From Candidatus Methylomirabilota bacterium (GTDB lineage Bacteria; Methylomirabilota; Methylomirabilia; Rokubacteriales; CSP1-6): a DNA stretch of 48,093 nucleotides. Both the position numbers and the translations under genes were made by a program. Position 1 is the stretch's first letter, and each line of letters opens with the position of its first letter. The notes under the pieces were generated by a model. The model saw nothing but the letters and a program-made list of their open reading frames with translations. It made no database searches and had not been told where the DNA came from. The stretch is from the NCBI GenBank assembly GCA_046728035.1, contig JBKPDT010000160.1:1-48093 (forward strand), read 5' to 3'. Positions 6,017 to 24,138 of the stretch are shown here, in pieces.

Positions 6017-7256
6017 GCGCGCCGTGCGAGCCCTCGTCCTGTCCTCGACGTTTCCCAACGCCAATCAGCCCACGCTGGGCGTCTTCATCCGCGAGCGGAT
6101 GCGAGCCCTCGCCGGCCGGTGCGAGCTGCGCGTGGTGGCGCCGGTGCCGTGGTTCCCCGCCAATGGGCTCATCCGCGGCGCGAGCGTGGTCGGGCTCCCG
6201 GCAGTCGAGGACGGCGGCGGGTTCCCCGTCTATCACCCGTCCTTCCTGTCCGTCCCGCGCTATCTCAAGTGCCTCGACGGCCTTCTCTACGCGATCTCGT
6301 TGGCCCCGTTCGTGGCGCGCCTGCGCCGGCAATTCCCGTTCGATCTGATCGACGCCCATTTCGCCTACCCCGATGGCGTCGCCGCCGTGCTCCTGGGCCG
6401 GCTCCTGCGCAGGCCGGTGGTCATCACGCTCCGCGGCAGCATTGTCCGTCTCCAGCACTACCGGCTCCATCGGCCACAGATCCGCCGGGCCCTGGAGGGC
6501 GCCGCGGGGATCATCGCGGTGAGCCAGTCGCTGAAGGACGTCGCCGCCGGCCTGGGCATCGTGCCGGAGCGGATCACGGTGATCCCGAACGGCGTGGATC
6601 TCGCAAAGTTCCATCCGGTCACCCGGGCCGCAGCCCGGGCGACGTGCGGGCTCCCCGCGGACCGGCCGGTCATCCTCACCGTCGGCGGCATCTACGAGGG
6701 CAAGGGACAACATCTGGTCGTCGAGGCCCTGGCCAGCCTGTCGGCCCGCTATCCCGACGCGCTCTACGTGATGGTGGGGGGCGATCGCCGAGACGGCTAT
6801 CCAGAGCGCGTGCGGGAGCTCGCCACACGGAGCGGCCTGGCCGACCGGCTGCGCTTCGCGGGGGCTCACCCCCACACAGCGCTCGCCGCCTGGTACTCCG
6901 CCGCAGACGTCTTCTGCCTCGCCACCCAATCCGAGGGCTGGGCCAATGTGCTCCTGGAAGCGCTCGCCTGCGGGACGCCGGTGGTCACCACCCGGGTCGG
7001 CGGCAATGCCGAGATCGTCCGCGAGGGGCGTGACGGCCTGCTCGTGCCGTTCGGCGACGTGCCCGCTCTTGCGCGGGCCCTCGACCGCGCGCTCACGTCG
7101 AGCTGGGACTCCGCCGCGCTCACCGCCCATGCCGCCGGGCACACGTGGCACGCCGCCGCGAACGGCGTGATGGGCGAGTTCGCGCGCGTCGTGGCCGCCG
7201 TGCCGTCCGTCGGCTCGGCGAATCCCAAGCGTTCGACCGCGGTGTCCAACCGATGA
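6000..7256 (+). CDS. GT4-family glycosyltransferase
   Basis: ATG 6000 gives a 17-nt overlap with the upstream gene. Has 'RALVLSSTFPNANQPTLGVFIRERM' and the GT4 C-terminal motif 'SEGWANVLLEALACGTPVVTTRVGGNAEIVREGRDGLLV'. Confidence 0.8.
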   Translation: MRPEPRRAVRALVLSSTFPNANQPTLGVFIRERMRALAGRCELRVVAPVPWFPANGLIRGASVVGLPAVEDGGGFPVYHPSFLSVPRYLKCLDGLLYAISLAPFVARLRRQFPFDLIDAHFAYPDGVAAVLLGRLLRRPVVITLRGSIVRLQHYRLHRPQIRRALEGAAGIIAVSQSLKDVAAGLGIVPERITVIPNGVDLAKFHPVTRAAARATCGLPADRPVILTVGGIYEGKGQHLVVEALASLSARYPDALYVMVGGDRRDGYPERVRELATRSGLADRLRFAGAHPHTALAAWYSAADVFCLATQSEGWANVLLEALACGTPVVTTRVGGNAEIVREGRDGLLVPFGDVPALARALDRALTSSWDSAALTAHAAGHTWHAAANGVMGEFARVVAAVPSVGSANPKRSTAVSNR

Positions 7257-8425
7257 TCACCACGCTCTGGCGGAAGCGGCTCTACCGTACCGAGGCCCTG
7301 CGCCTCATGGCCCGTGACCTCCGGGGCTGGCGTGGGCCCGTGCGCGCGCCCGGCGAGCATCTGGACGCGGCCGCCCGCTGGATCCTGCGCGCCCAGGCGG
7401 CGACGCGGGACGACGGGGTGTCTGGCGGCTACTCGCTCGAGGACGGGTGGATCGCCTCCTATCCGGAGACGACCGGTTACATCATCCCGACCCTCCTCGC
7501 CTACGCGGACTATTCCGGCAAGCGCGAGTACGCCGCGCACGCGCTCGCCATGGCCGACTGGGAGTGCGCGGTGCAGCTCCCGGAAGGCGGCTTCCCGGGC
7601 CACTTCGTGAACCAGACCAATCCCCCCGCGGTCTTCAACACCGGACAGGTAATCTTCGGCCTCCTCGCAGCGCACGAGACGTTCGGGAACCCGCGGTTTC
7701 TCGACGCCGCCCGGCGAGCGGGGGCCTGGCTCGCGGCCATCCAGGAGCGCGACGGCTCGTGGCGCCGGTTCGACTACCGCGACACGGTGCACGTCTACAA
7801 CACCCGCACGGCGTGGGCTCTCGTGGAGCTGGGCCTGGCCGCGGGCGCCGACGCGACGCGCGCCGCCGGCGAGCGGCACCTCGACTGGGCGCTGGACCAG
7901 CAGGATCGGGACGGTTGGTTCCGCAACGCCGCGTTCGGCGCCGGCGAGGACCCGTTCCTGCACACCATCGCTTATACGACACAGGGGCTGCTCGAGGCCG
8001 GCCTTCGGGTCGGCCGGGCCGACTACGTGGCGGCCGCGGAGCGCGCCTGCCGCGCGCTCGTGCCCCACGTGCGGCCCGACGGCCATATCCCGGGCACCTT
8101 CGCGCCGGGCTGGCGCCCCACCGCCCGCTACTCGTGCCTGACCGGAAACGCCCAGATGGCGGCCCAGTGGCTCCGGCTCCACGATCGCACGGGCGACCCG
8201 GGATTCCGGGAAGCCGCCGTCCGCGCCCTGACGTTCCTCAAGCGCACGCAGGATTGCGAGACGCACAATCCTCACGCGCGCGGGGCCATCAAGGGCTCAC
8301 ACCCCTTCTGGGGGCGCTATCTCTTCGGCACCTATCCCAACTGGGCCGTGAAGTTCTTCATGGACGCCCTCCTCATGGAGGAGCTCGTCCTCACGGGACG
8401 GAAGTCATGCATCCGCTGCTGGTGA
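7253..8425 (+). CDS. Prenyltransferase/squalene-cyclase-like (alpha/alpha)6-barrel protein with QW repeats
   Basis: ATG 7253 overlaps the upstream TGA (ATGA). Has QW-type repeats 'WLAAIQERDGSWRRF' and 'LDWALDQQDRDGWFRN', plus 'SYPETTGYIIPTLL'. Function is unknown in this context. Confidence 0.6.
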   Translation: MITTLWRKRLYRTEALRLMARDLRGWRGPVRAPGEHLDAAARWILRAQAATRDDGVSGGYSLEDGWIASYPETTGYIIPTLLAYADYSGKREYAAHALAMADWECAVQLPEGGFPGHFVNQTNPPAVFNTGQVIFGLLAAHETFGNPRFLDAARRAGAWLAAIQERDGSWRRFDYRDTVHVYNTRTAWALVELGLAAGADATRAAGERHLDWALDQQDRDGWFRNAAFGAGEDPFLHTIAYTTQGLLEAGLRVGRADYVAAAERACRALVPHVRPDGHIPGTFAPGWRPTARYSCLTGNAQMAAQWLRLHDRTGDPGFREAAVRALTFLKRTQDCETHNPHARGAIKGSHPFWGRYLFGTYPNWAVKFFMDALLMEELVLTGRKSCIRCW

Positions 8426-16493: not shown

Positions 16494-17858
16494 ATGAGCA
16501 AGCCAAAAGTGATGGTGGTGGATGACGACGAGGGCATCCGGACACAGCTGAAGTACGCCCTTCAGGACGAGTACACGGTGACCCTGGCGGAGGACCGTCC
16601 TCAGGCCCTGGCCCTCCTTCAGGAAGTGCAGCCCGCCGTGGTCAGCCTCGATCTCGGATTGCCGCCCGAGCCCGACGGCGCCGAGGAGGGGTTGAAGACC
16701 CTGGACGAGATCCTCCAGGCGGCGCCGCTCACCAAGGTCATCGTCGTCACCGGCAACAACGACCGCGCCAACGCGCTGCGCGCCATGCAGCTCGGCGCCT
16801 TCGACTACCACCTGAAGCCCATCAACCTTCCAGAGTACAAGGTCGTCGTCCGTCGCGCCGCCTTCCTCAGCGACCTCTCGCGGGAGAGCGAGGCGGCCGC
16901 CCGCACGGACGAGCAGGCCGTTCGCTTCGAGGAGATCATCGGCAAGACCACGCGCATGCGCGAGATCTTCTCGCTGGTCCAGCGCGTGGCCAAGACCGAC
17001 GCCACGGTGCTCATCGAGGGGGAGAGCGGCACGGGCAAGGAGCTGATCGCGCGGGCCATCCACCACCGGAGCACCCGGCGCGACGGCCCGTTCGTCGCCA
17101 TCAACTGCGGGGCGATCCCGGAGACGCTCCTCGAATCCGAGCTGTTCGGCCACGAGCGGGGCGCCTTCACGGGGGCCCATGTCCAGCGCAAGGGCAAGTT
17201 CGAGATGGCCGAGCGGGGCACCCTCTTCCTCGATGAGATCGGAGAGCTCCCGTTGACCCTGCAGGTGAAGATTCTGCGCTTTCTGCAGGAGCGCACGGTG
17301 GAGCGGATCGGCGGCCGCCAGCCGATCGCGGTGGACCTGCGAATCATCGCCGCGACCAACCGCGACTTGAAGGCGCATCTCGAGCGGGGTCTCTTCCGCG
17401 AGGATCTCTACTATCGGCTCTCGGTGGTGCGGGTGGAGGTCCCGCCGCTGCGGGAGCGGGCCGAGGACGTCGTGATTCTCGCCAACGCGTTCCTGAGCCG
17501 CGCGGTCAAGGAGCAGCGGCGATCCGTGCGATTCGGGCCCCGCGCGCTCCAGTCCCTGCTCGCCTATGCCTGGCCGGGTAATGTCCGGGAGCTCGAGAAC
17601 CGGGTGAGCCGGGCCGTCATCATGACCAAGGGCCGGATCATCGAGCCCGCCGACCTGGACCTTGCCGCGGTGGACGCGACCGCCGAGCAGGGGTCGCTGC
17701 GGGAGACTCGCCAGCGGGTGGAGCGGCAGACCCTCGTCGAGGTGCTCAGCCGCAACCGGGGCAACGTCAGCCAGGCCGCGCGCGAGCTGCGGATCAGCCG
17801 GCCGACCCTCCACGGGCTGCTCGACAAGCACGAGATCAACGCCAAAGATTTCCGCTGA
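16494..17858 (+). CDS. prsR: PEP-CTERM-box sigma-54-dependent response regulator PrsR
   Basis: The RBS GAGGAG (16481-16486) lies 7 nt before the ATG. Has REC 'KVMVVDDDEGIR...VVSLDLGLPP', AAA+ 'GESGTGKE', the sigma-54 contact loop 'GAFTGA', and the Fis-type HTH 'NVSQAARELRISRPTLHGLL'. Confidence 0.85.
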   Translation: MSKPKVMVVDDDEGIRTQLKYALQDEYTVTLAEDRPQALALLQEVQPAVVSLDLGLPPEPDGAEEGLKTLDEILQAAPLTKVIVVTGNNDRANALRAMQLGAFDYHLKPINLPEYKVVVRRAAFLSDLSRESEAAARTDEQAVRFEEIIGKTTRMREIFSLVQRVAKTDATVLIEGESGTGKELIARAIHHRSTRRDGPFVAINCGAIPETLLESELFGHERGAFTGAHVQRKGKFEMAERGTLFLDEIGELPLTLQVKILRFLQERTVERIGGRQPIAVDLRIIAATNRDLKAHLERGLFREDLYYRLSVVRVEVPPLRERAEDVVILANAFLSRAVKEQRRSVRFGPRALQSLLAYAWPGNVRELENRVSRAVIMTKGRIIEPADLDLAAVDATAEQGSLRETRQRVERQTLVEVLSRNRGNVSQAARELRISRPTLHGLLDKHEINAKDFR

Positions 17859-17898
17859 CCGGCCCTCGCGCCTGCCCGACACCCGGGCGGCACGGGAG

Positions 17899-19137
17899 CT
17901 ACGGGCTGATCGGAAGGGGGCCGGTAGGCCGCTCGACGGCGCCCGCCGTCGGCGGGACGCGACGCGGCGCCCCACTCAGGTCCTCGATGGGCATCCACGG
18001 CTCGACCGCGGAGACCCCGGCCTGCGGCAAGGGGCTCCCCGGCCCCGGCGAGAAGTCGTAGGCGAAGGGATTCTCGAAGCAGACCACGACGCCGCAGTCC
18101 ACGTTGCCCGCCAGGCGCAGGTACCCCTGGGCCGGGGGGAACGGCGCGACGCCGATGGGGGCGTGGGCGGCGTTGTTCACCACGACGCCGTCGAGGGGGC
18201 CGCGCTCGGGCGCCACGATGCCTCCGCCGGCGTTTCCGTAGGCGGTGTTGTGGACGACGATGATCCCGCGGAGCAGTCCGCGCTTGGCGTAGTCCTCGAG
18301 GGCGATACCCGCCTCGCGATTGCCGACGACCACGTTGTTGCGCACGATCACCGGCCCACCGCCAATGACGATGCCGGACGAGCGCTGCGACCCCACCACG
18401 ACGTTGCGCTCGACCACCGAGACGCGGTCGGGCATCCGGGCGCCGTAAACCATGATGCCGGGGCCCTTGGTGTCCACGATCACGTTGTCACGGATGACGC
18501 CCACCGAGTTGAGCTTGACCTGTAGCCCGTAGCCGATCTCGGGGGCGGGCGCGCGGATCCCGCGGATGTGATTGCCCTCCACCAGGAGGTCCGTGACCTC
18601 ACACGTCCGGCCCTCGTGACACCCGAAGTACATGCCCGTCGCCTCCGAGGCGACGATGGTGTTCCGTCGGACGGTGAGTCCCCGGATCGACACGTGCGTC
18701 GCCGCGACGGCGATGCCGCCCAGCCCCTCGAACCGACAGTCCTCGATCGTGATGCCCGCCCGCGAGTGGATCCGGAACCCGTCCACCGCCCGCTGGGTCG
18801 GGCCCAGGTCGAGCCCGCGGAAGGTCACATGGTCGGCGCGCACCGAGAAGACATTGTTGTCCCGCTCGCCATAGACGATGCGCGGCCGGATCTCGGGGAT
18901 CTTCGCGCGAACGACCGACGGCGCCCCCGGCCGCCCCCCGTAATGGACGGTACAGCCCCCCCGATACTCTCCCGGTCGGAGCAGCAGCTCGGCGCCGGGG
19001 GGAAGGGCGTTGATCTCGACGCAGAGGTCCGCCTCGGGCCCGATCTCGTGCGGCTCGGCGGGCGGCTGAGCGTGCGCCGCGGATGCCGCCAGGACGAGTC
19101 CCGTCATCGCCAGCCACGCCAGCCGCGAGGGCGTCAT
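17899..19137 (-). CDS. Secreted right-handed parallel beta-helix repeat protein (pectin-lyase fold; possible glycan lyase, hydrolase or epimerase)
   Basis: Has the signal peptide 'MTPSRLAWLAMTGLVLAASAAHAQP'. Has stacked PbH1-like repeats 'VEGNHIRG', 'IRDNVIVDT', 'VERNVVVGS', 'VRNNVVVGN', 'VHNTAYGN'. The ATG overlaps the stop of the upstream gene (ATGA, 19134-19137). Confidence 0.65.
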   Translation of the reverse strand: MTPSRLAWLAMTGLVLAASAAHAQPPAEPHEIGPEADLCVEINALPPGAELLLRPGEYRGGCTVHYGGRPGAPSVVRAKIPEIRPRIVYGERDNNVFSVRADHVTFRGLDLGPTQRAVDGFRIHSRAGITIEDCRFEGLGGIAVAATHVSIRGLTVRRNTIVASEATGMYFGCHEGRTCEVTDLLVEGNHIRGIRAPAPEIGYGLQVKLNSVGVIRDNVIVDTKGPGIMVYGARMPDRVSVVERNVVVGSQRSSGIVIGGGPVIVRNNVVVGNREAGIALEDYAKRGLLRGIIVVHNTAYGNAGGGIVAPERGPLDGVVVNNAAHAPIGVAPFPPAQGYLRLAGNVDCGVVVCFENPFAYDFSPGPGSPLPQAGVSAVEPWMPIEDLSGAPRRVPPTAGAVERPTGPLPISP

Positions 19138-21056
19138 TCGGCTCGCCCGGTCACCGCGTGCGGTCGCGCGACCAGGTCGCCGAGCCGGACGATGGCCGTC
19201 TCGTAAGCCCCTGTCATCCTGGCTCCCTCGTCCGCGGTGAAGGGCGCCAGGACGGCGTCGTGGGCGGCGCGCGCGTCTCCCTCTCGCCTCACGCCGACCT
19301 TGACCCGGCGGAGCTCATCCGTCTGGAATGCCTCGATGATCGATCGCATCCCCCGATGTCCGCCGTCGCTGCCGCGCATCCGCGTGCGCACCGTCCCCAA
19401 GGGCAAGTCGAGATCGTCGTAGACGACAATGCATTGCGCGTGATCGAAGCCCAGGCGTCTGGCGAGTCGCGAAAGAACGGGGCCGGAGTGATTCACGAAG
19501 GTCATGGGCTTGACGAGGCATACCACCTCACCCTTCCACACCGTCCGCGCCACCTGGGCGTCGGCCGACTGGTCCCATGTCGCGCCGAGGCCGGCGGCGA
19601 GGCGGTCCAGGATCGCGTGACCGACATTGTGTGGAGTCCCCTGGTAGTTCTCACCCGGATTGCCGAGGCCCACGACCACGTGCGCCGGCGCCGACTCCCG
19701 GCTCCCTTCCACCACCACCGGCTCGACGGGCTCGCGAGCCGGCGTTGCCGAAGAGCTCCCATCGGAGGGAATCGTGAGGAGGGAACACGAATCGCAAAAT
19801 CGGTTCCTTCCGCAGTTCGACTGCCAGCATGCCACTCCGCGCGTCCGATCGAGAATGATCCGATAGAGATGATCGGCGATGTTCGAGCCCTTGAGCAGGA
19901 CGAGATCGCCGGGGCGCAAAAACCCTTTGAAGAAGTCGGAGGCGGCCTTGACGGTGCCGATAGCTCGAATGCGCTCGTCCCCCGCGTGCGTCTTGGCACG
20001 CAACGCCGCAGAGGCGCGCGGGCCTACGAAACAGACCAGGTCCGCGGACAGGAGCGCTCGTCGCGCCATGGCGACGTAGATGGCCCCAGCGTCTCCCATC
20101 GTGTCGGCAATGGTGCCGATGACCACCACCTTGCGTGGCGCCTCCGCCTCCCGCATGAAATCGAGTGCCGGCGGGATGGTGTGGACCGAGGCCTTCCAGT
20201 CGTCGCGGATGAAGGTCACGCCATCGGGCAGGGTGACCGGGCTCATGCGACCCGGATAGGGAGGAACCTCGCTCAGGGCCCGCGCGGCGGCATCGAGAGG
20301 AACGCCAAGCGCGAGGCCGACCGCCACGGCGGCGAGCGCCGAAGGCACCCAGTGGCTCCCACAAAGCTGGGTCTGAACGGGGACGCGCTGCTCCTCATGA
20401 GCCAGCGTGAAGGCGAGCCGCCCGGGCCAGGCCGCGGAGATCGACTCGGCGCGGACGTCCGCGTGCGCTTGTACCCCGAAGGTCAGGACGCGACCGCGGA
20501 AGTCCTTCCCCATCGCGAGGACGCGGGAGTCGTCGGCATTGAGGACGGCGACGCCGTCGGAGGGCAACGCGTCGATGAGCTTCCGCTTCTCGGCGGCGAT
20601 ACCCTCGGTCGAGCCATATGCGCTGTAGTGATCGGTCCCGATGTTCGTGACGACGCCGATTTTCGGCCGAAGGAGGGCGAGCGGTCGATCCATGGTCCCC
20701 GGAGCGGGAGCGCCCACCTCCACTACCGCGAACCGATCTCCCTTTCGCACCGTGCAGATCGTGCGCGCGATGTCGGGCAGCTCGTTGGCGGCGCCGCTCT
20801 TGCGCCCGGGCATCCGCGCGGAAAGGACCTGGGCGACGAAATTCTTGGTGCTGGTCTTGCCCGCGCTGCCGGTGACGCCGATGAAGACGACCGATGAGTA
20901 TCTTGACCGGTGACGACCCGCCCAGCGGACGAGGAATCGCATCCACGCCGGTTGGACGAGCCGCGTGTGGATCGCTTCGAGAGGCCATCGCGGATCCGCC
21001 CGGCGGAACGCCTGAGTGAGCCACGCACGGCCGCGATCGACCCCGAAGCGCATCAC
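19134..21056 (-). CDS. Fusion protein: MurF-like Mur-ligase domain + Cys-rich linker + peptidyl-tRNA hydrolase (Pth) domain
   Basis: A single 640-aa ORF with no internal stop. Mur ligase part: 'VVFIGVTGSAGKTSTKNF', 'VVTNIGTDHYSAYGS', 'LLKGSN'. Linker: 'CWQSNCGRNRFCDSC'. Pth part: 'VVVGLGNPGENYQGTPHNVGH', 'TFVNHSG', 'VVYDDLDLPLG', 'GSDGGHRGMRS'. Confidence 0.7.
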   Translation of the reverse strand: MMRFGVDRGRAWLTQAFRRADPRWPLEAIHTRLVQPAWMRFLVRWAGRHRSRYSSVVFIGVTGSAGKTSTKNFVAQVLSARMPGRKSGAANELPDIARTICTVRKGDRFAVVEVGAPAPGTMDRPLALLRPKIGVVTNIGTDHYSAYGSTEGIAAEKRKLIDALPSDGVAVLNADDSRVLAMGKDFRGRVLTFGVQAHADVRAESISAAWPGRLAFTLAHEEQRVPVQTQLCGSHWVPSALAAVAVGLALGVPLDAAARALSEVPPYPGRMSPVTLPDGVTFIRDDWKASVHTIPPALDFMREAEAPRKVVVIGTIADTMGDAGAIYVAMARRALLSADLVCFVGPRASAALRAKTHAGDERIRAIGTVKAASDFFKGFLRPGDLVLLKGSNIADHLYRIILDRTRGVACWQSNCGRNRFCDSCSLLTIPSDGSSSATPAREPVEPVVVEGSRESAPAHVVVGLGNPGENYQGTPHNVGHAILDRLAAGLGATWDQSADAQVARTVWKGEVVCLVKPMTFVNHSGPVLSRLARRLGFDHAQCIVVYDDLDLPLGTVRTRMRGSDGGHRGMRSIIEAFQTDELRRVKVGVRREGDARAAHDAVLAPFTADEGARMTGAYETAIVRLGDLVARPHAVTGRAE

Positions 21057-21165
21057 GCTTTCATTCTAGGATGGGACCGCTTGCGGAGTCGAGCGAGACC
21101 GTGAAGCGACGATCCGAAGGACCGCCCCTTGTACGGCGGCGCAGGATCTGCGCGGCCGAGGCGTC

Positions 21166-21864
21166 CTAGGCGCTTCCGCTGGCGGCGTGTTCCACGATTT
21201 GCGCATACAAGGCGAACTCGACCTTGGACGCCTGCACGATCGCCTCGTAGTCGTCCTCGCGGCGTACATACGAATTGATGAGGTCCCGCACTTCATTCAT
21301 GTGACCCTGGTCGGCGGCGCCGTGCCTGGCGAGGTAGGTCACCGCCGAGTCCGGGACGCCGAGCATGCCCTTGATGTTTCCCGCCAGCTGGGTCGCGAAG
21401 AGCTGGCTCAACCCTTCGATGACGTATGTGTCCCCGAGTATCCCCATCGGGTTCTCGTGGCCAGCAGTGTAATACATGTACGCGACCAGACAGTCGCAGG
21501 GGACCGACGGTTTGGAGGTTTCGAGGCGCGAAATATCGTACTTCATCGCCTTCAAGTCATCCGCGATCCAGCGGTGGTGACCGTACTCCTCGACGGCGTG
21601 TTCGAGAAGCCACTGACGGATTTCCTCGTCACGAGTACTCACCCGCGTCGCGGCGAGCGCGTACACCTTCGAGCCTTCGCGCACATGGTAGTAAGAGTCG
21701 ACGAGAAACCTCGTGTAGATGCGTCCGATCTCCGCGGCGTCGCCGGCACTGGGCGGTGCGCTGTCACCAGGATCCGTCACCAGTAGGTTGACAAGGGGGA
21801 TCGCCATGAATCGATCCCGCTCGACCTTCGTGGCGCTCTGAAGCCGCTCGTACGTTGTCGCCAT
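21166..21864 (-). CDS. Heme-oxygenase-like di-iron (iron-containing redox enzyme / HDO family) protein
   Basis: ATG 21864 has a GGAGG RBS 8 nt upstream, so the GTG at 21879 is less likely. Helical protein with candidate metal ligands 'DSYYHVREG', 'AVEEYGHHRW' (ExxH), 'YVIEGLSQ' and 'AADQGHMNE' (DxxH). Its GC content is visibly lower than in neighbouring genes. Confidence 0.65.
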   Translation of the reverse strand: MATTYERLQSATKVERDRFMAIPLVNLLVTDPGDSAPPSAGDAAEIGRIYTRFLVDSYYHVREGSKVYALAATRVSTRDEEIRQWLLEHAVEEYGHHRWIADDLKAMKYDISRLETSKPSVPCDCLVAYMYYTAGHENPMGILGDTYVIEGLSQLFATQLAGNIKGMLGVPDSAVTYLARHGAADQGHMNEVRDLINSYVRREDDYEAIVQASKVEFALYAQIVEHAASGSA

Positions 21865-22296
21865 ACCGATGACCTCCACCGTTGAGGTTGATACTGACCG
21901 TGGAATTCGAACGGCGCGACCGACACGCGATCGAGCGTCATCCGTACCCCGGATCGGCCCTCCACCGGTCGGCGCGACGCTCGAGCCACGCCAGGACGGC
22001 AGCGGCTCCGCGTCGTAGGCTGCCGCTGATCACTCGGACCTTCATCAGTGGCCTCTGCCAATATAGCAGGCCCAGTGAGCACAACCCAAAGCCAATTTTC
22101 TGTGTAACCACGCGTCAATGCTGAAACAGTAATGGAGTCAAGAGTTCGACATGCAGGTAAATTGGGCGTCACGCCTGTCCGGGCAACATCTAGGGAGATC
22201 GTGCAACCCCGCGGCCGAATTGTGAGGATCGCTCTTGCGCGCGTGGCCGTCGCGGAGCGAGAATGGTCCACTTCTCGAACGCATGGAGGCGATCAA

Positions 22297-23316
22297 ATGG
22301 CCCGAATCGTCGCGAGTGTGTTCCTGGTCATGGTGTGCCTCGTACCGGGCGTCACGGGGGCACACCCCTTCACGTCGCTGGTCGTCTTCGGCGATAGCTT
22401 GTCAGACTCCGGCCGAGCTTATGCTCTCAGTGAAGGGTTCGAACCCCCGTCACCGCCGTACGCGCAGCGGTTCACCAATGGCCCGGTGGCAGTGGAGTAC
22501 CTGGCCTCGGCGCTCGGCTTGCCGTTGCTCCCGGCCAGCACGCCTGGTGGGACGAACTACGCCGTAGGCGGCGCTACCACCGGCACCAAGAACGTGAGCT
22601 GGGAGACCGACATCCCGCCGGGGATCCAGTCGATCGCCGCGTTCCAGCACACGGGAATCTCGGTTCAGGTCAACGAGTTCCTGAGCAGTGGGCCGTCCGT
22701 CGATCTGGCCAGCGCTCTCTTTTTCGTTTGGGGAGGGCCGAACGACATCGTCCTCGCCCGATTGACGGGTGGCGACATCGCCGCCGCCGCCGCCGCGGCG
22801 GTGACCAACCTCGCGGGAGCGGTCGAAGCGCTCGCACTCGAAGGGGGCCAGCACTTCCTCGTGCCGAACATGGTGGATCTGGGACAGACGCCGGAGTTCA
22901 TCGGCACCGAGCTGCAGGGACCACTGCGTCTGCTCAGTCAGGAGTTCAACGCGGCTCTGGCCGAGGCGCTGGCGCAGCTGGAGACCGGACTGGAGGCGGC
23001 GGGCCTTCCCGTGGACATCACCGTCTTCGACACCTTCGGCATGTTCGATACCGTCCTCAACGATCCTGGGGCCTTCGGATTCACGAACACGACGGAGGGC
23101 TGTGTGGACAACCTCGAGGCCTTTCTCGCCGGCTGTCCCGGATACCTTTTCTTCGACTTCACGCACCCCACGACCGCCGCCCACGAGCTGCTCGGACTGG
23201 GCTTCCGGGCGGTTGTCCCGTCATCCGTCCCGTCACCGCCGGCGGGCCTGCTCCTCGTGATGGGTGCCGGGCTGGTCGCGCTGATCGGCCTTCGCGCTCG
23301 GCGCAGCGGGGTGTGA
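22297..23316 (+). CDS. SGNH/GDSL esterase-lipase with C-terminal PEP-CTERM sorting signal (exosortase substrate)
   Basis: The RBS GGAGG (22285-22289) lies 7 nt before the ATG. Has the signal peptide 'MARIVASVFLVMVCLVPGVTGA', block I 'VVFGDSLSDSG', block III 'VWGGPND' and block V 'FFDFTHPT'. The C-terminus 'VPSPPAGLLLVMGAGLVALIGLRARRSGV' is a VPxP motif plus TM helix plus Arg-rich tail. Confidence 0.8.
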   Translation: MARIVASVFLVMVCLVPGVTGAHPFTSLVVFGDSLSDSGRAYALSEGFEPPSPPYAQRFTNGPVAVEYLASALGLPLLPASTPGGTNYAVGGATTGTKNVSWETDIPPGIQSIAAFQHTGISVQVNEFLSSGPSVDLASALFFVWGGPNDIVLARLTGGDIAAAAAAAVTNLAGAVEALALEGGQHFLVPNMVDLGQTPEFIGTELQGPLRLLSQEFNAALAEALAQLETGLEAAGLPVDITVFDTFGMFDTVLNDPGAFGFTNTTEGCVDNLEAFLAGCPGYLFFDFTHPTTAAHELLGLGFRAVVPSSVPSPPAGLLLVMGAGLVALIGLRARRSGV

Positions 23317-23343: not shown

Positions 23344-24138
23344 TCAACCGCGAGATGGAACGAAGAACTGGAAGACGTCCGGCCGGCTCCCCATCACGAA
23401 TTCCTCGAGCTGGCGGATGCTGGCGTAGTACGGGATGACCTCGCCGTAATAGCTCATTGGTTCGCCGACTTGCCGGAGCCCCAGACCGAACTTCGACAGC
23501 ATGCGCTGAAGGCTACTCTCCATGGCCGCGACCCAGTACTCGAGCCCCATGTTCACGCTCTCCACGTACATCTCCTTGAAGAGGCCGAAGAGGATCAGCG
23601 GGTACTGACTCCGGCGGTAGGTCGCCTCGGCGCGCGCCTGGGCGTCCTTTTCCGGGTCTCCGAGCTCCTGGCCGTAGAGGCCGTCATTGGCGCGGCGCCG
23701 GTAGCTCCTGGCGAGGATCAAGCGCGAGATCTCGGCGGTCTTGTCGCGCGGTAGCCGATGATAGTCCGCGGAGAGGGTTCCCGCGTGCTCCTCTAGAGGA
23801 AAGCCCAGACGGGAGTCTCGCACCAGGCGCAGCGTCGCCACCATCTCCTGCCGCTCATTGGTCGCGGCGAAATGGATCGAGTAGGCGTCGTACTGGTCCG
23901 TCTCGCGCTCGTTGGGATAGCGAGCCGCGTCGAGATACTTGCACTCGAGGCAGTACACGGCGTAGCGGAGCTGCTGCACACTGTCCCAGAGGCCATTGGT
24001 CGCCGCCAGTCGCCTGAAGTCGAAATACCGTCGCGGAAGGCCGCTTCCAGGTTCCGCGGATGGCGTGGATCCGCCGCGGATCTGCGGGACGATTCGACTG
24101 CCCGCGGCCTCGGGAGCGCGGTCTCGTATCGTTCCCAT
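23344..24138 (-). CDS. PEP-CTERM/exosortase-associated acyltransferase (FeeM/LuxI-like N-acyl amino acid synthase family)
   Basis: Has 'LRYAVYCLECKYLDAARYPNERETDQYDAYSIHFAA', 'ATLRLVRDS', 'AEISRLIL' and 'YWVAAMESSLQRMLSKFG', the GNAT-like autoinducer-synthase/FeeM pattern. The start lies 1 nt after the HlyD gene stop. Confidence 0.7.
   Translation of the reverse strand: MGTIRDRAPEAAGSRIVPQIRGGSTPSAEPGSGLPRRYFDFRRLAATNGLWDSVQQLRYAVYCLECKYLDAARYPNERETDQYDAYSIHFAATNERQEMVATLRLVRDSRLGFPLEEHAGTLSADYHRLPRDKTAEISRLILARSYRRRANDGLYGQELGDPEKDAQARAEATYRRSQYPLILFGLFKEMYVESVNMGLEYWVAAMESSLQRMLSKFGLGLRQVGEPMSYYGEVIPYYASIRQLEEFVMGSRPDVFQFFVPSRG

Follow-up and report, generated by a model that had tools for sequence, protein, structure and literature searches.

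A three-gene segment within an exosortase-linked locus

The 48,093-nucleotide stretch of DNA analysed here (the window), from a Candidatus Methylomirabilota bacterium, carries three adjacent genes on its minus strand. They encode a heme-oxygenase-like di-iron oxidase (HDO; 232 aa, 21166..21864), a cytoplasmic fusion of a Mur ligase, a four-cysteine (Cys4) knuckle and a peptidyl-tRNA hydrolase (Mur::Pth; 640 aa, GTG start, 19134..21056), and a secreted protein with a right-handed parallel beta-helix (412 aa, 17899..19137). A reading of the DNA made from its letters and open reading frames (the sequence-only reading) had described these genes and joined them into one pathway. Here we report what profile searches, structural models and comparison with related loci say about each of them and about their connection.

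Pfam and NCBIfam profiles of the window proteins show that the window holds a complete PEP-CTERM/exosortase exopolysaccharide (EPS) locus. The core of such a locus is found in one neighbourhood, with an exosortase (Exosortase_EpsH, 201 bits), EpsI (TIGR02914, 86 bits, cutoff 43), the GAF histidine kinase PrsK and the PEP-CTERM-box sigma-54 response regulator PrsR (16497..17858, plus strand; TIGR02915, 589 bits against a cutoff of 502.6), along with two AsnB-like amidotransferases, a GT4 glycosyltransferase and an ATP-grasp protein. Beyond PrsR lie the three genes, on the opposite strand, followed by genes for a GDSL lipase, a PEP-CTERM/exosortase-associated, FeeM-type N-acyl amino acid synthase (NAS; 23344..24138, minus strand; TIGR03694, 186 bits against a cutoff of 112; FeeM and Acetyltransf_5 domains), a MacA-like adaptor, an ABC ATPase and a 1148-aa TPR protein (PrsT). 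The 4-kb segment is placed between a conserved prsK-xrt-epsI-prsR block and a NAS-MacAB-PrsT block, and the nearest relatives of the locus are Methylomirabilota/Candidatus Rokubacteria metagenome-assembled genomes (MAGs).

The layout is as the sequence-only reading had given it. The stop codon of Mur::Pth and the ATG of the beta-helix gene share the sequence ATGA (19134-19137), the gap from the HDO stop to the Mur::Pth start is exactly 109 nt, and the stop codon of the beta-helix gene (17899) is 40 nt from that of the convergent prsR (17858), the last gene of the exosortase operon before the segment. The HDO start codon at 21864 is backed by the N-termini of orthologues (MATxYERL). Pfam and NCBIfam also bore out the three domain assignments, namely PF14518, Mur_ligase_M/C with Pept_tRNA_hydro, and Beta_helix.

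We compared the segment with other loci, designated by L-numbers; members of the Mur::Pth family (cluster representatives) have P-numbers. The order HDO, Mur::Pth, beta-helix, convergent on prsR-epsI-xrt-prsK, was found again in L082/L083 and L084/L085. The same trio is present in L081, where the contig stops before prsR, and the first two genes have the same order in L093. Synteny of the trio exceeds chance inside this narrow clade. The sequence-only reading had named the lack of synteny in any relative as the result that would overturn it, and since the trio is syntenic in relatives it does not fall on that account; the check that it had proposed, of whether the trio is conserved across genomes, shows synteny in no fewer than four contig sets of close Methylomirabilota/Rokubacteria, with the genes split in sibling loci.

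These sibling loci show how the genes separate. Mur::Pth is on the opposite strand, convergent with HDO, in L090/L091. FeeM is followed by HDO after a 24-nt gap in L092, with no Mur::Pth within 8 kb, and in L097 the beta-helix gene comes immediately after HDO, with the exosortase block behind it, again without Mur::Pth. L001 has Mur::Pth and the beta-helix gene, with a PaaK-like gene and a gene for a secreted protein in the place of HDO; L098 has NAS and, further on, a beta-helix gene convergent on prsR but neither HDO nor Mur::Pth; and L101 carries a tandem pair of Mur::Pth genes, on the other strand from its beta-helix gene, and lacks HDO. In all, HDO occurs without Mur::Pth in L086-L089, L092 and L094-L097, and Mur::Pth without HDO in L001, L101 and 33 loci of other genomes. 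None of the seven more distant HDO loci (48-64% identity) has Mur::Pth. Likewise, profile hidden Markov models (HMMs) detected no HDO in 34 Mur-like loci of other genomes, and detected NAS and the beta-helix protein, among these 34, only in the Rokubacteria locus L001.

Identities along the segment disagree as well. Between the window and L001 they are 90% for prsR, 82% for NAS and 73% for the beta-helix protein but only 53% for Mur::Pth, and between the window and L090 they are 88% for HDO and 62% for Mur::Pth. This pattern suggests cassette replacement in a variable spacer. A search for the ends of mobile elements gave no convincing inverted or direct repeats bordering any of the three genes.

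Candidate transcription signals were found at two places. A sigma-70-like sequence, TCGACT-N18-TAGAAT (21063..21092, minus strand), lies in the 109-nt spacer between HDO and Mur::Pth; it is a putative promoter recognised by its match to the consensus, and it is the sole promoter-like match in 17700-22400. The -10 element of this spacer (TAGAAT, TAGAGT or TAAGAT) is kept in five loci and the -35 element in three. TAGAAT ends only 7 nt before the Mur::Pth start (21056) and no clear Shine-Dalgarno sequence is present, so Mur::Pth and the beta-helix protein may be translated from a leaderless mRNA. Ahead of HDO is a conserved motif, GAAAATTGGC...TTGTGCTCAC...TGCTATATT (22060..22100, minus strand), which is shared by the window, L081, L090 and L091 and which, from its likeness to an extended -10 element, may act as one. 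Since putative promoter elements precede both HDO and Mur::Pth, the arrangement is consistent with HDO and Mur::Pth-beta-helix being separate transcription units. PrsR is sigma-54 dependent; a search for sigma-54 promoters (TGGCAC-N5-TTGCW, at most two mismatches) returned 8 matches against 11.6 expected, none of them in the three-gene module. No conserved RNA structure was detected in the 109-nt spacer (consensus fold -2.15 kcal/mol, 4 pairs), and Rfam models run over the whole window identified only a tRNA-Val, with no riboswitch or T-box.

These results bear directly on the pathway that had been proposed, in which HDO produces or alters a small carboxylate or an amino acid, Mur::Pth attaches this to the precursor of a glycan, and outside the cytoplasm the decorated glycan is processed by the beta-helix enzyme. 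The same-strand order in the window, L081, L082/L083, L084/L085 and, in part, L093 speaks for it, as do the ATGA overlap and the fact that tailoring of amino acids and of fatty acids is known for HDOs, with UndA and CADD as structural neighbours of the present protein. It is opposed by the many loci with HDO or Mur::Pth alone, by the orientation flips in L090/L091 and L101, by the promoter-like elements that are kept ahead of each unit in several relatives, and by beta-helix genes that stand alone beside prsR (L098) or within unrelated glycosyltransferase operons (L100). We consider a single pathway of this kind unlikely; the parts of the earlier interpretation were right and their wiring was not. 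What we favour instead, as a fairly probable though by no means certain reading, is that the 4-kb stretch is a variable accessory segment of a PEP-CTERM/exosortase EPS locus, made up of three separable genes. The case also carries a caution, as close synteny within one clade, and even a 4-nt overlap, did not here equal one pathway.

The Mur::Pth fusion and its family

Residues 42-393 of Mur::Pth (19878..20933, minus strand) make up the central and C-terminal domains of a Mur ligase (Mur_ligase_M, 115 bits; Mur_ligase_C, 47 bits). They match the murF model TIGR01143 over model positions 61-408 only and score 211.8 bits, below the cutoff of 288.6. The N-terminal domain of MurF is absent, only about 46 poorly conserved residues standing before model position 61, and residues 102-399 of a MurF of known structure (PDB 1gg4) align with residues 58-353. 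The Mur motifs GxTGSxGKT, TNIGTDH, AAEK, LNADD, GRM and RDDWKAS are invariant in our family alignment (A1), as is the Cys4 knuckle that follows, C410-W-x4-C415-x5-C421-x2-C424 (19785..19829, minus strand). Matches to Mur-only proteins run to about residue 424-447, that is across the Cys4 motif, which is also found in a protein of Pth-Mur order (P0392) and in both Mur modules of a Mur-Mur-Pth protein (P0291).

The Pth domain (residues 460-623; 19188..19679, minus strand) is recognised by Pept_tRNA_hydro (PF01195; 155 bits, E 3e-45) and scores 147 bits with the pth model TIGR00447, above the cutoff of 100. Its residues N466, H476, N522 and D547 are invariant and correspond to the catalytic positions N10, H20, N68 and D93 of the Escherichia coli enzyme, and basic residues, R559 and R584, occupy the positions of K105 and R133 in the clamp for the tRNA 5'-phosphate. 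One position departs from canonical Pth: in alignments with PDB entries Arg568 replaces Asn114 (E. coli) or Asn116 (Mycobacterium tuberculosis), giving GGHRG for GGHNG. Among 152 family sequences this position is Arg in 120, Lys in 15 and Asn in 5, so that 135 (89%) have Arg or Lys. Canonical Pth touches the peptidyl part of its substrate here, and we speculate that the change could suit the cleft to an acyl group that is anionic and not a peptide. Judged from these features, the domain is a paralogue specialised to the Mur::Pth family and not a stand-alone housekeeping enzyme.

The family is large. A word-indexed search returned more than 1500 homologues, and 1954 cluster representatives at 50% identity reach E<=1e-30. 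NCBIfam has no curated model dedicated to it, and its members are publicly named 'MurF' or 'aminoacyl-tRNA hydrolase', since MurF and Pth are the best named matches and TIGR00447 scores above its equivalog cutoff. The Mur-Pth architecture accounts for about half of the top 150 representatives; the others include Mur-only proteins that end after the Cys4 knuckle, Mur-Mur-Pth (P0291, P0033 and P0062) and Mur-Mur (P0294). Both the Pth-Mur protein P0392, whose Cys4 is C-terminal, and the Mur-Mur-Pth proteins retain GGHRG and Cys4. That fusions of either order carry the same signatures is, at the level of sequence, strong evidence that the two modules act in the same pathway. Mur-Cys4 modules are also fused to a circularly permuted ATP-grasp ligase (P0407) and to an HD-domain phosphohydrolase (HD_4/DUF6817; P0388).

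As for genomic context, the neighbours of the family in 34 species-representative loci are GT4, AsnB-like, Wzy_C, Wzx, polysaccharide deacetylase, sugar-transfer ATP-grasp, GT2, Ugd and AMP-ligase genes. The family turns up in the EPS loci of several phyla. Members from Marinobacter, Nitrosomonas and Rhodoferax sit in such loci, not in dcw clusters, and tandem arrangements are frequent, with pairs of Mur-like genes in L002, L008, L011, L014, L032, L101 and L102. In L102, from a gammaproteobacterium, the pair lies between Wzx and AsnB in an XrtA-type locus, in which four exosortase-A markers (TIGR03098, TIGR03099, TIGR03100 and TIGR03101) score above cutoff. Because exosortase markers and EPS genes surround the family both in the window and in L102, we regard it, on gene context, as a recurrent component, so far without a name, of exosortase-type EPS loci from no fewer than two phyla, and the family is the main novelty of the analysis. 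In a Gemmatimonadota MAG (L022, 1072-12738) nine tandem Mur-like ligase genes, mostly with Cys4 and none with Pth, stand beside an AsnB-like gene; this array could be an assembly line of stepwise ligases.

Could the protein be nothing more than a redundant MurF paralogue fused to a housekeeping Pth, serving peptidoglycan synthesis and translation quality control, with its position in the locus incidental? The names of its best matches and the TIGR00447 score would fit such an origin. Set against it are the sub-cutoff murF score and the missing MurF N-terminal domain, the occurrence of two to nine tandem copies per locus in EPS/exosortase loci rather than one copy in a peptidoglycan (dcw) cluster, the family's own signatures (the Cys4 knuckle and Asn114 to Arg/Lys), and the fact that the fusion arose in both domain orders. 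We regard this explanation as very improbable indeed.

Mur ligases turn a carboxylate into an acyl phosphate, which they then join to an amine, and Pth cleaves the ester of N-blocked aminoacyl-tRNA. The simplest need for both chemistries in one polypeptide would be an ATP-dependent amide ligase, acting in the cytoplasm in three steps, for which the tRNA dependence and all substrates are what we infer from the domains and their surroundings. The Mur module would phosphorylate a carboxylate of an EPS precursor, probably that of a uronic acid, of another sugar acid or at the C-terminus of a peptide. An aminoacyl-tRNA would then attack the activated carboxylate through its alpha-amine, to give an N-acyl-aminoacyl-tRNA. 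Finally, the fused Pth would cut the tRNA ester, releasing the tRNA and leaving a new free carboxylate, which could supply the following Mur module where several stand in tandem or are fused. By analogy, this would be tRNA-dependent amide ligation resembling that of the peptide aminoacyl-tRNA ligases (PEARLs), in which a carboxylate is phosphorylated by ATP and attacked by aminoacyl-tRNA, and the tRNA is then removed by hydrolysis (PMC12054794).

The two modules might work in the reverse order. Pth would first free an N-blocked aminoacyl or peptidyl group from tRNA, whether made by a FemAB-like or GNAT enzyme or arising by drop-off, and the Mur module would then join the resulting carboxylate to an amine of an EPS precursor such as an amino sugar. 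Pth chemistry leaves just the free carboxylate required by a Mur ligase, several family loci (L016-L019 and L102) have FemAB-like Acetyltransf_6 genes, and the DegT aminotransferases and deacetylases of these loci imply amino sugars. However, FemAB-like genes are missing from most fused loci and from the window, and we judge this order of events quite improbable. A separate idea, that FemAB-like genes replace Pth in Mur-only loci, arose from a first tblastn count (0/19 versus 4/15) and was rejected because L102 has Acetyltransf_6 beside a fused pair.

A third possibility is that the product is a lipopeptide. Mur::Pth would extend the C-terminal carboxylate of the NAS product from aminoacyl-tRNA, HDO would oxidise the N-acyl di- or oligopeptide, MacAB would export it, and tandem Mur arrays elsewhere would lengthen such chains. 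NAS, HDO, Mur::Pth and a MacA/ABC/FtsX pump do occur within about 6 kb in Methylomirabilota loci, extension of a C-terminal carboxylate is natural to Mur ligases (it is established for MurC-F), and arrays are known, with nine genes in L022, pairs in L002, L011, L101 and L102, and Mur-Mur-Pth fusions. On the other hand, a profile HMM found no NAS within 10 kb of any of the 33 Mur-like loci outside Methylomirabilota, and those loci are devoted to glycan assembly (GT4, Wzx, Wzy and Ugd). This lipopeptide route therefore seems improbable to us.

Taken in its full form, our own proposal for the family is that it represents a second, independently evolved class of ribosome-independent enzymes that form amides from aminoacyl-tRNA by a PEARL-like logic, decorating EPS (or lipopeptide) precursors, with tandem or fused Mur modules building short peptides stepwise. 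We put this forward tentatively and hold it to be rather doubtful. If it were true, a large family (about 2000 clusters at 50% identity), at present mis-annotated as 'MurF' or 'aminoacyl-tRNA hydrolase', would tie tRNA charging to the chemistry of cell-surface polysaccharides and would provide a new enzyme architecture for tRNA-dependent peptide-bond formation. To our knowledge, few of the enzymes that join amino acids to the uronic acids of bacterial glycans have been identified. The family and its culturable hosts (Marinobacter orientalis, Nitrosomonas and Pseudothauera rhizosphaerae) make such attachment testable.

HDO with its NAS partner, and the beta-helix protein

HDO matches PF14518 with 74.2 bits (cutoff 28.9, E 1.5e-20). 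An AlphaFold2 (AF2) model built from 18 homologues has a mean confidence (pLDDT) of 87.7, and Foldseek places it in the heme-oxygenase-like fold, with template-modelling (TM) scores of 0.80 to 3dde, 0.78-0.84 to CADD and 0.73-0.77 to UndA. The ligand set ExxH / E / DxxH that the sequence-only reading had picked out proved correct: E93, H96, E150, H181, D185 and H188 (ExxH / E / HxxxDxxH) are invariant in 18 sequences and, in a family profile alignment, line up with E101/H104/E159/H194/D198/H201 of UndA and with the E/E/HxxxDxxH ligands of CADD. By this alignment to solved HDOs, from which the geometry of the metal site is taken, the protein would be a di-iron enzyme that activates O2.

The HDO subfamily is small (50 matches), and its constant partner is the exosortase-associated NAS and not Mur::Pth. 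NAS lies 0-2 genes from HDO in every HDO locus that has at least 2.5 kb of upstream sequence, namely L086, L087, L089, L092, L094, L096 and all the close relatives of the window, with a gap of just 18 nt in L089; in the two exceptions, L088 and L095, the contig ends less than 1.5 kb upstream. Other recurrent neighbours are PEP-CTERM proteins, a small membrane protein, MacB-type pumps, an SMR transporter, a fatty-acid hydroxylase and GDSL lipases. Because NAS lies close to HDO in all adequately covered loci, we place HDO in the NAS/lipid branch of the locus, presumably as an oxidative tailoring enzyme. Most likely it would oxidise the N-acyl amino acid itself or else a precursor of it, lipid or amino acid, by hydroxylation, desaturation or UndA-like oxidative decarboxylation, and the oxidised product may leave through the adjacent MacA/MacB-type pump.

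A link between NAS and exosortase has been published (Craig, Cherry & Brady, 2011, as cited in PMC4897644 and PMC11072679). We found no description of HDO as an exosortase- or NAS-linked component in the literature or in curated models, and the pairing is the secondary novelty of this analysis. It predicts that oxidised N-acyl amino acids are among the products of exosortase systems, where the role of NAS is still unclear.

The sequence-only reading had also noted that HDO is less GC-rich than its neighbours and had taken this as a hint of separate acquisition. Its hand count was accurate, as the gene has a GC content of 61.4% against 70.2% for the window, but computing GC by codon position overturned the explanation. 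At third positions (GC3) HDO has 0.80, equal to the genes for Mur::Pth, the GDSL lipase and NAS (0.82), and the shortfall is confined to first (GC1, 0.63) and second positions (GC2, 0.42). HDO orthologues are below most of their neighbours in GC at all seven loci examined; every orthologue has a GC2 of 0.38-0.42 and a GC1 of 0.63-0.69, and GC3 is normal (0.85-0.92) in L081, L082, L084 and L086. The low GC is therefore due to amino-acid composition and is not evidence for recent or separate acquisition of HDO.

Some further genes near HDO and NAS deserve mention. A small membrane protein is encoded just upstream of HDO in L084 (141 aa, 6705-7130) and L096 (124 aa, 7593-7967), with the motif ..PFY.GI...PYLY.E..G.NL.WYVH.., and as a truncated 67-aa form in L082 (6845-7048). 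A tblastn search with the L082 product detected a remnant of this gene in the window (21938..22045, minus strand; 55% identity over 20 aa, E 7e-4); as only a 35-aa open reading frame is left, the gene appears to have decayed there. In the Rokubacteria loci without HDO a protein of about 470 aa follows NAS (L001, 7172-8593; L098, 4337-5749). The L001 protein has faint similarity to PaaK (phenylacetate-CoA ligase) and that of L098 has no Pfam match, the two being likened by size and position only; such a protein may partner NAS instead, in tailoring or activation. In L099 (2792-5822), FeeM and then ThiF-like and nitroreductase-like proteins are encoded upstream of a beta-helix gene.

The beta-helix protein itself matches Beta_helix (PF13229; 60 bits, E 2e-16) and also NosD. 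It has seven invariant cysteines and an N-terminal signal-like peptide that can be seen in its sequence (MTPSRLAWLAMTGLVLAASAAHA, then QP), and its AF2 model (pLDDT 89.8) is a right-handed parallel beta-helix. The leading Foldseek matches are Pel9A (1ru4, PL9), PL6 alginate lyases and chondroitinase B, a rhamnogalacturonan lyase, and the AlgE4 and AlgG epimerases. These are enzymes that abstract the C5 proton of uronates. The earlier view of the protein as a secreted, glycan-active enzyme thus gains from the signal peptide and from a list of structural matches led by polyuronide lyases and epimerases. Going by the models, a lyase, an epimerase and a hydrolase are all candidates, and we propose that the protein may act in the periplasm as a lyase- or epimerase-type enzyme that trims or epimerises a uronate-containing polymer. 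Its family has 578 matches, mostly in Rokubacteria-type contigs, and its gene stays beside prsR without Mur::Pth in L097 and L098 and also occurs inside GT2/DegT operons (L100). Direct repeats of 17 nt, 66 nt apart, within the gene (18335-18483) owe their period to the 22-residue coils of the beta-helix and are not regulatory repeats.

Two other proteins of the window were noted. The GDSL lipase (22132/22297-23316, plus strand) has a PEP-CTERM-like tail, VPSPPAGLLLVMGAGLVALIGLRARRSGV, with a transmembrane helix and an Arg cluster. This tail is missed by Pfam PF07589, and the lipase is probably a substrate of the exosortase that bears a variant of the sorting motif. Weak similarity to the C-terminal domains of squalene-hopene cyclase and D-glucuronyl C5-epimerase is found in a protein of the window (7145-8425, plus strand) and in proteins of two Rhodoferax Mur::Pth loci (L002, 5023-6351; L003, 7110-8396), a hint that these EPS loci encode glycan-modifying enzymes of the (alpha/alpha)6 type.

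Weighing the segment against known systems

A number of observations count against our reading of the segment and of its enzymes. HDO and Mur::Pth are neighbours in seven of the nine loci of the closest clade, so a local functional link between them is possible, and many of the comparison loci are short metagenomic contigs. Family members with Mur but no Pth exist and work without it, so tRNA need not enter the core reaction. Dedicated tRNA genes were not seen beside the Mur-like genes, where scattered tRNAs of no consistent identity occur in 3 of 25 loci, and neither an aminoacyl-tRNA synthetase paralogue nor a T-box was found accompanying the family. We found no papers that join a Mur ligase with Pth or with exosortase. 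The free carboxylate of NAS products could in principle be extended by a Mur-type ligase. Finally, the Foldseek TM scores of the beta-helix protein are moderate (0.45-0.57).

Compared with known PEP-CTERM/exosortase systems, the window has the same full regulatory core and an NAS above cutoff; HDO and the Mur::Pth family are components for which we found no description, in the literature or in curated models, as parts of such systems. HDO shares the fold and all six metal ligands with UndA, CADD, MboA and the uncharacterised Sden_3740 (PDB 3dde), the last being its closest solved relative (profile E 5e-26). It differs from the characterised HDOs in having only 15-18% identity to them and in belonging to a small subfamily tied to NAS and PEP-CTERM proteins. 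The beta-helix protein resembles Pel9A, the PL6 alginate lyase and chondroitinase B, and AlgG/AlgE in fold, secretion signal and EPS-locus context, whereas its identity to them is 10-17%, so that the likeness is one of fold, at the TM scores given above.

With MurF and other Mur ligases (MurC-F, Mpl, MurT, CapB/PgsB, FolC, cyanophycin synthetase and CfbE) Mur::Pth shares the central ATP-binding and C-terminal domains and the conserved P-loop, TNIGxDH, AAEK and NADD motifs, MurF being its best HMM and PDB match, and the chemistry expected of its Mur module would be theirs, an acyl phosphate followed by an amide bond. It departs from MurF in lacking the N-terminal domain, in its sub-cutoff score, in the extra Cys4 knuckle and fused Pth, and in being found, often as tandem paralogues, in EPS/exosortase loci and not in the dcw cluster. 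Its Pth domain is about 40% identical to solved bacterial Pths (PF01195/TIGR00447) and keeps their catalytic and clamp positions, but it is part of a 640-aa ligase and has Arg or Lys at the position of Asn114. To the PEARLs, which are LanB-like, Mur::Pth would be alike in proposed chemical logic only. No homology between the two was detected, Pfam and NCBIfam showing only Mur and Pth domains in Mur::Pth, and while PEARLs work on ribosomal scaffold peptides in natural-product clusters, Mur::Pth belongs to EPS loci.

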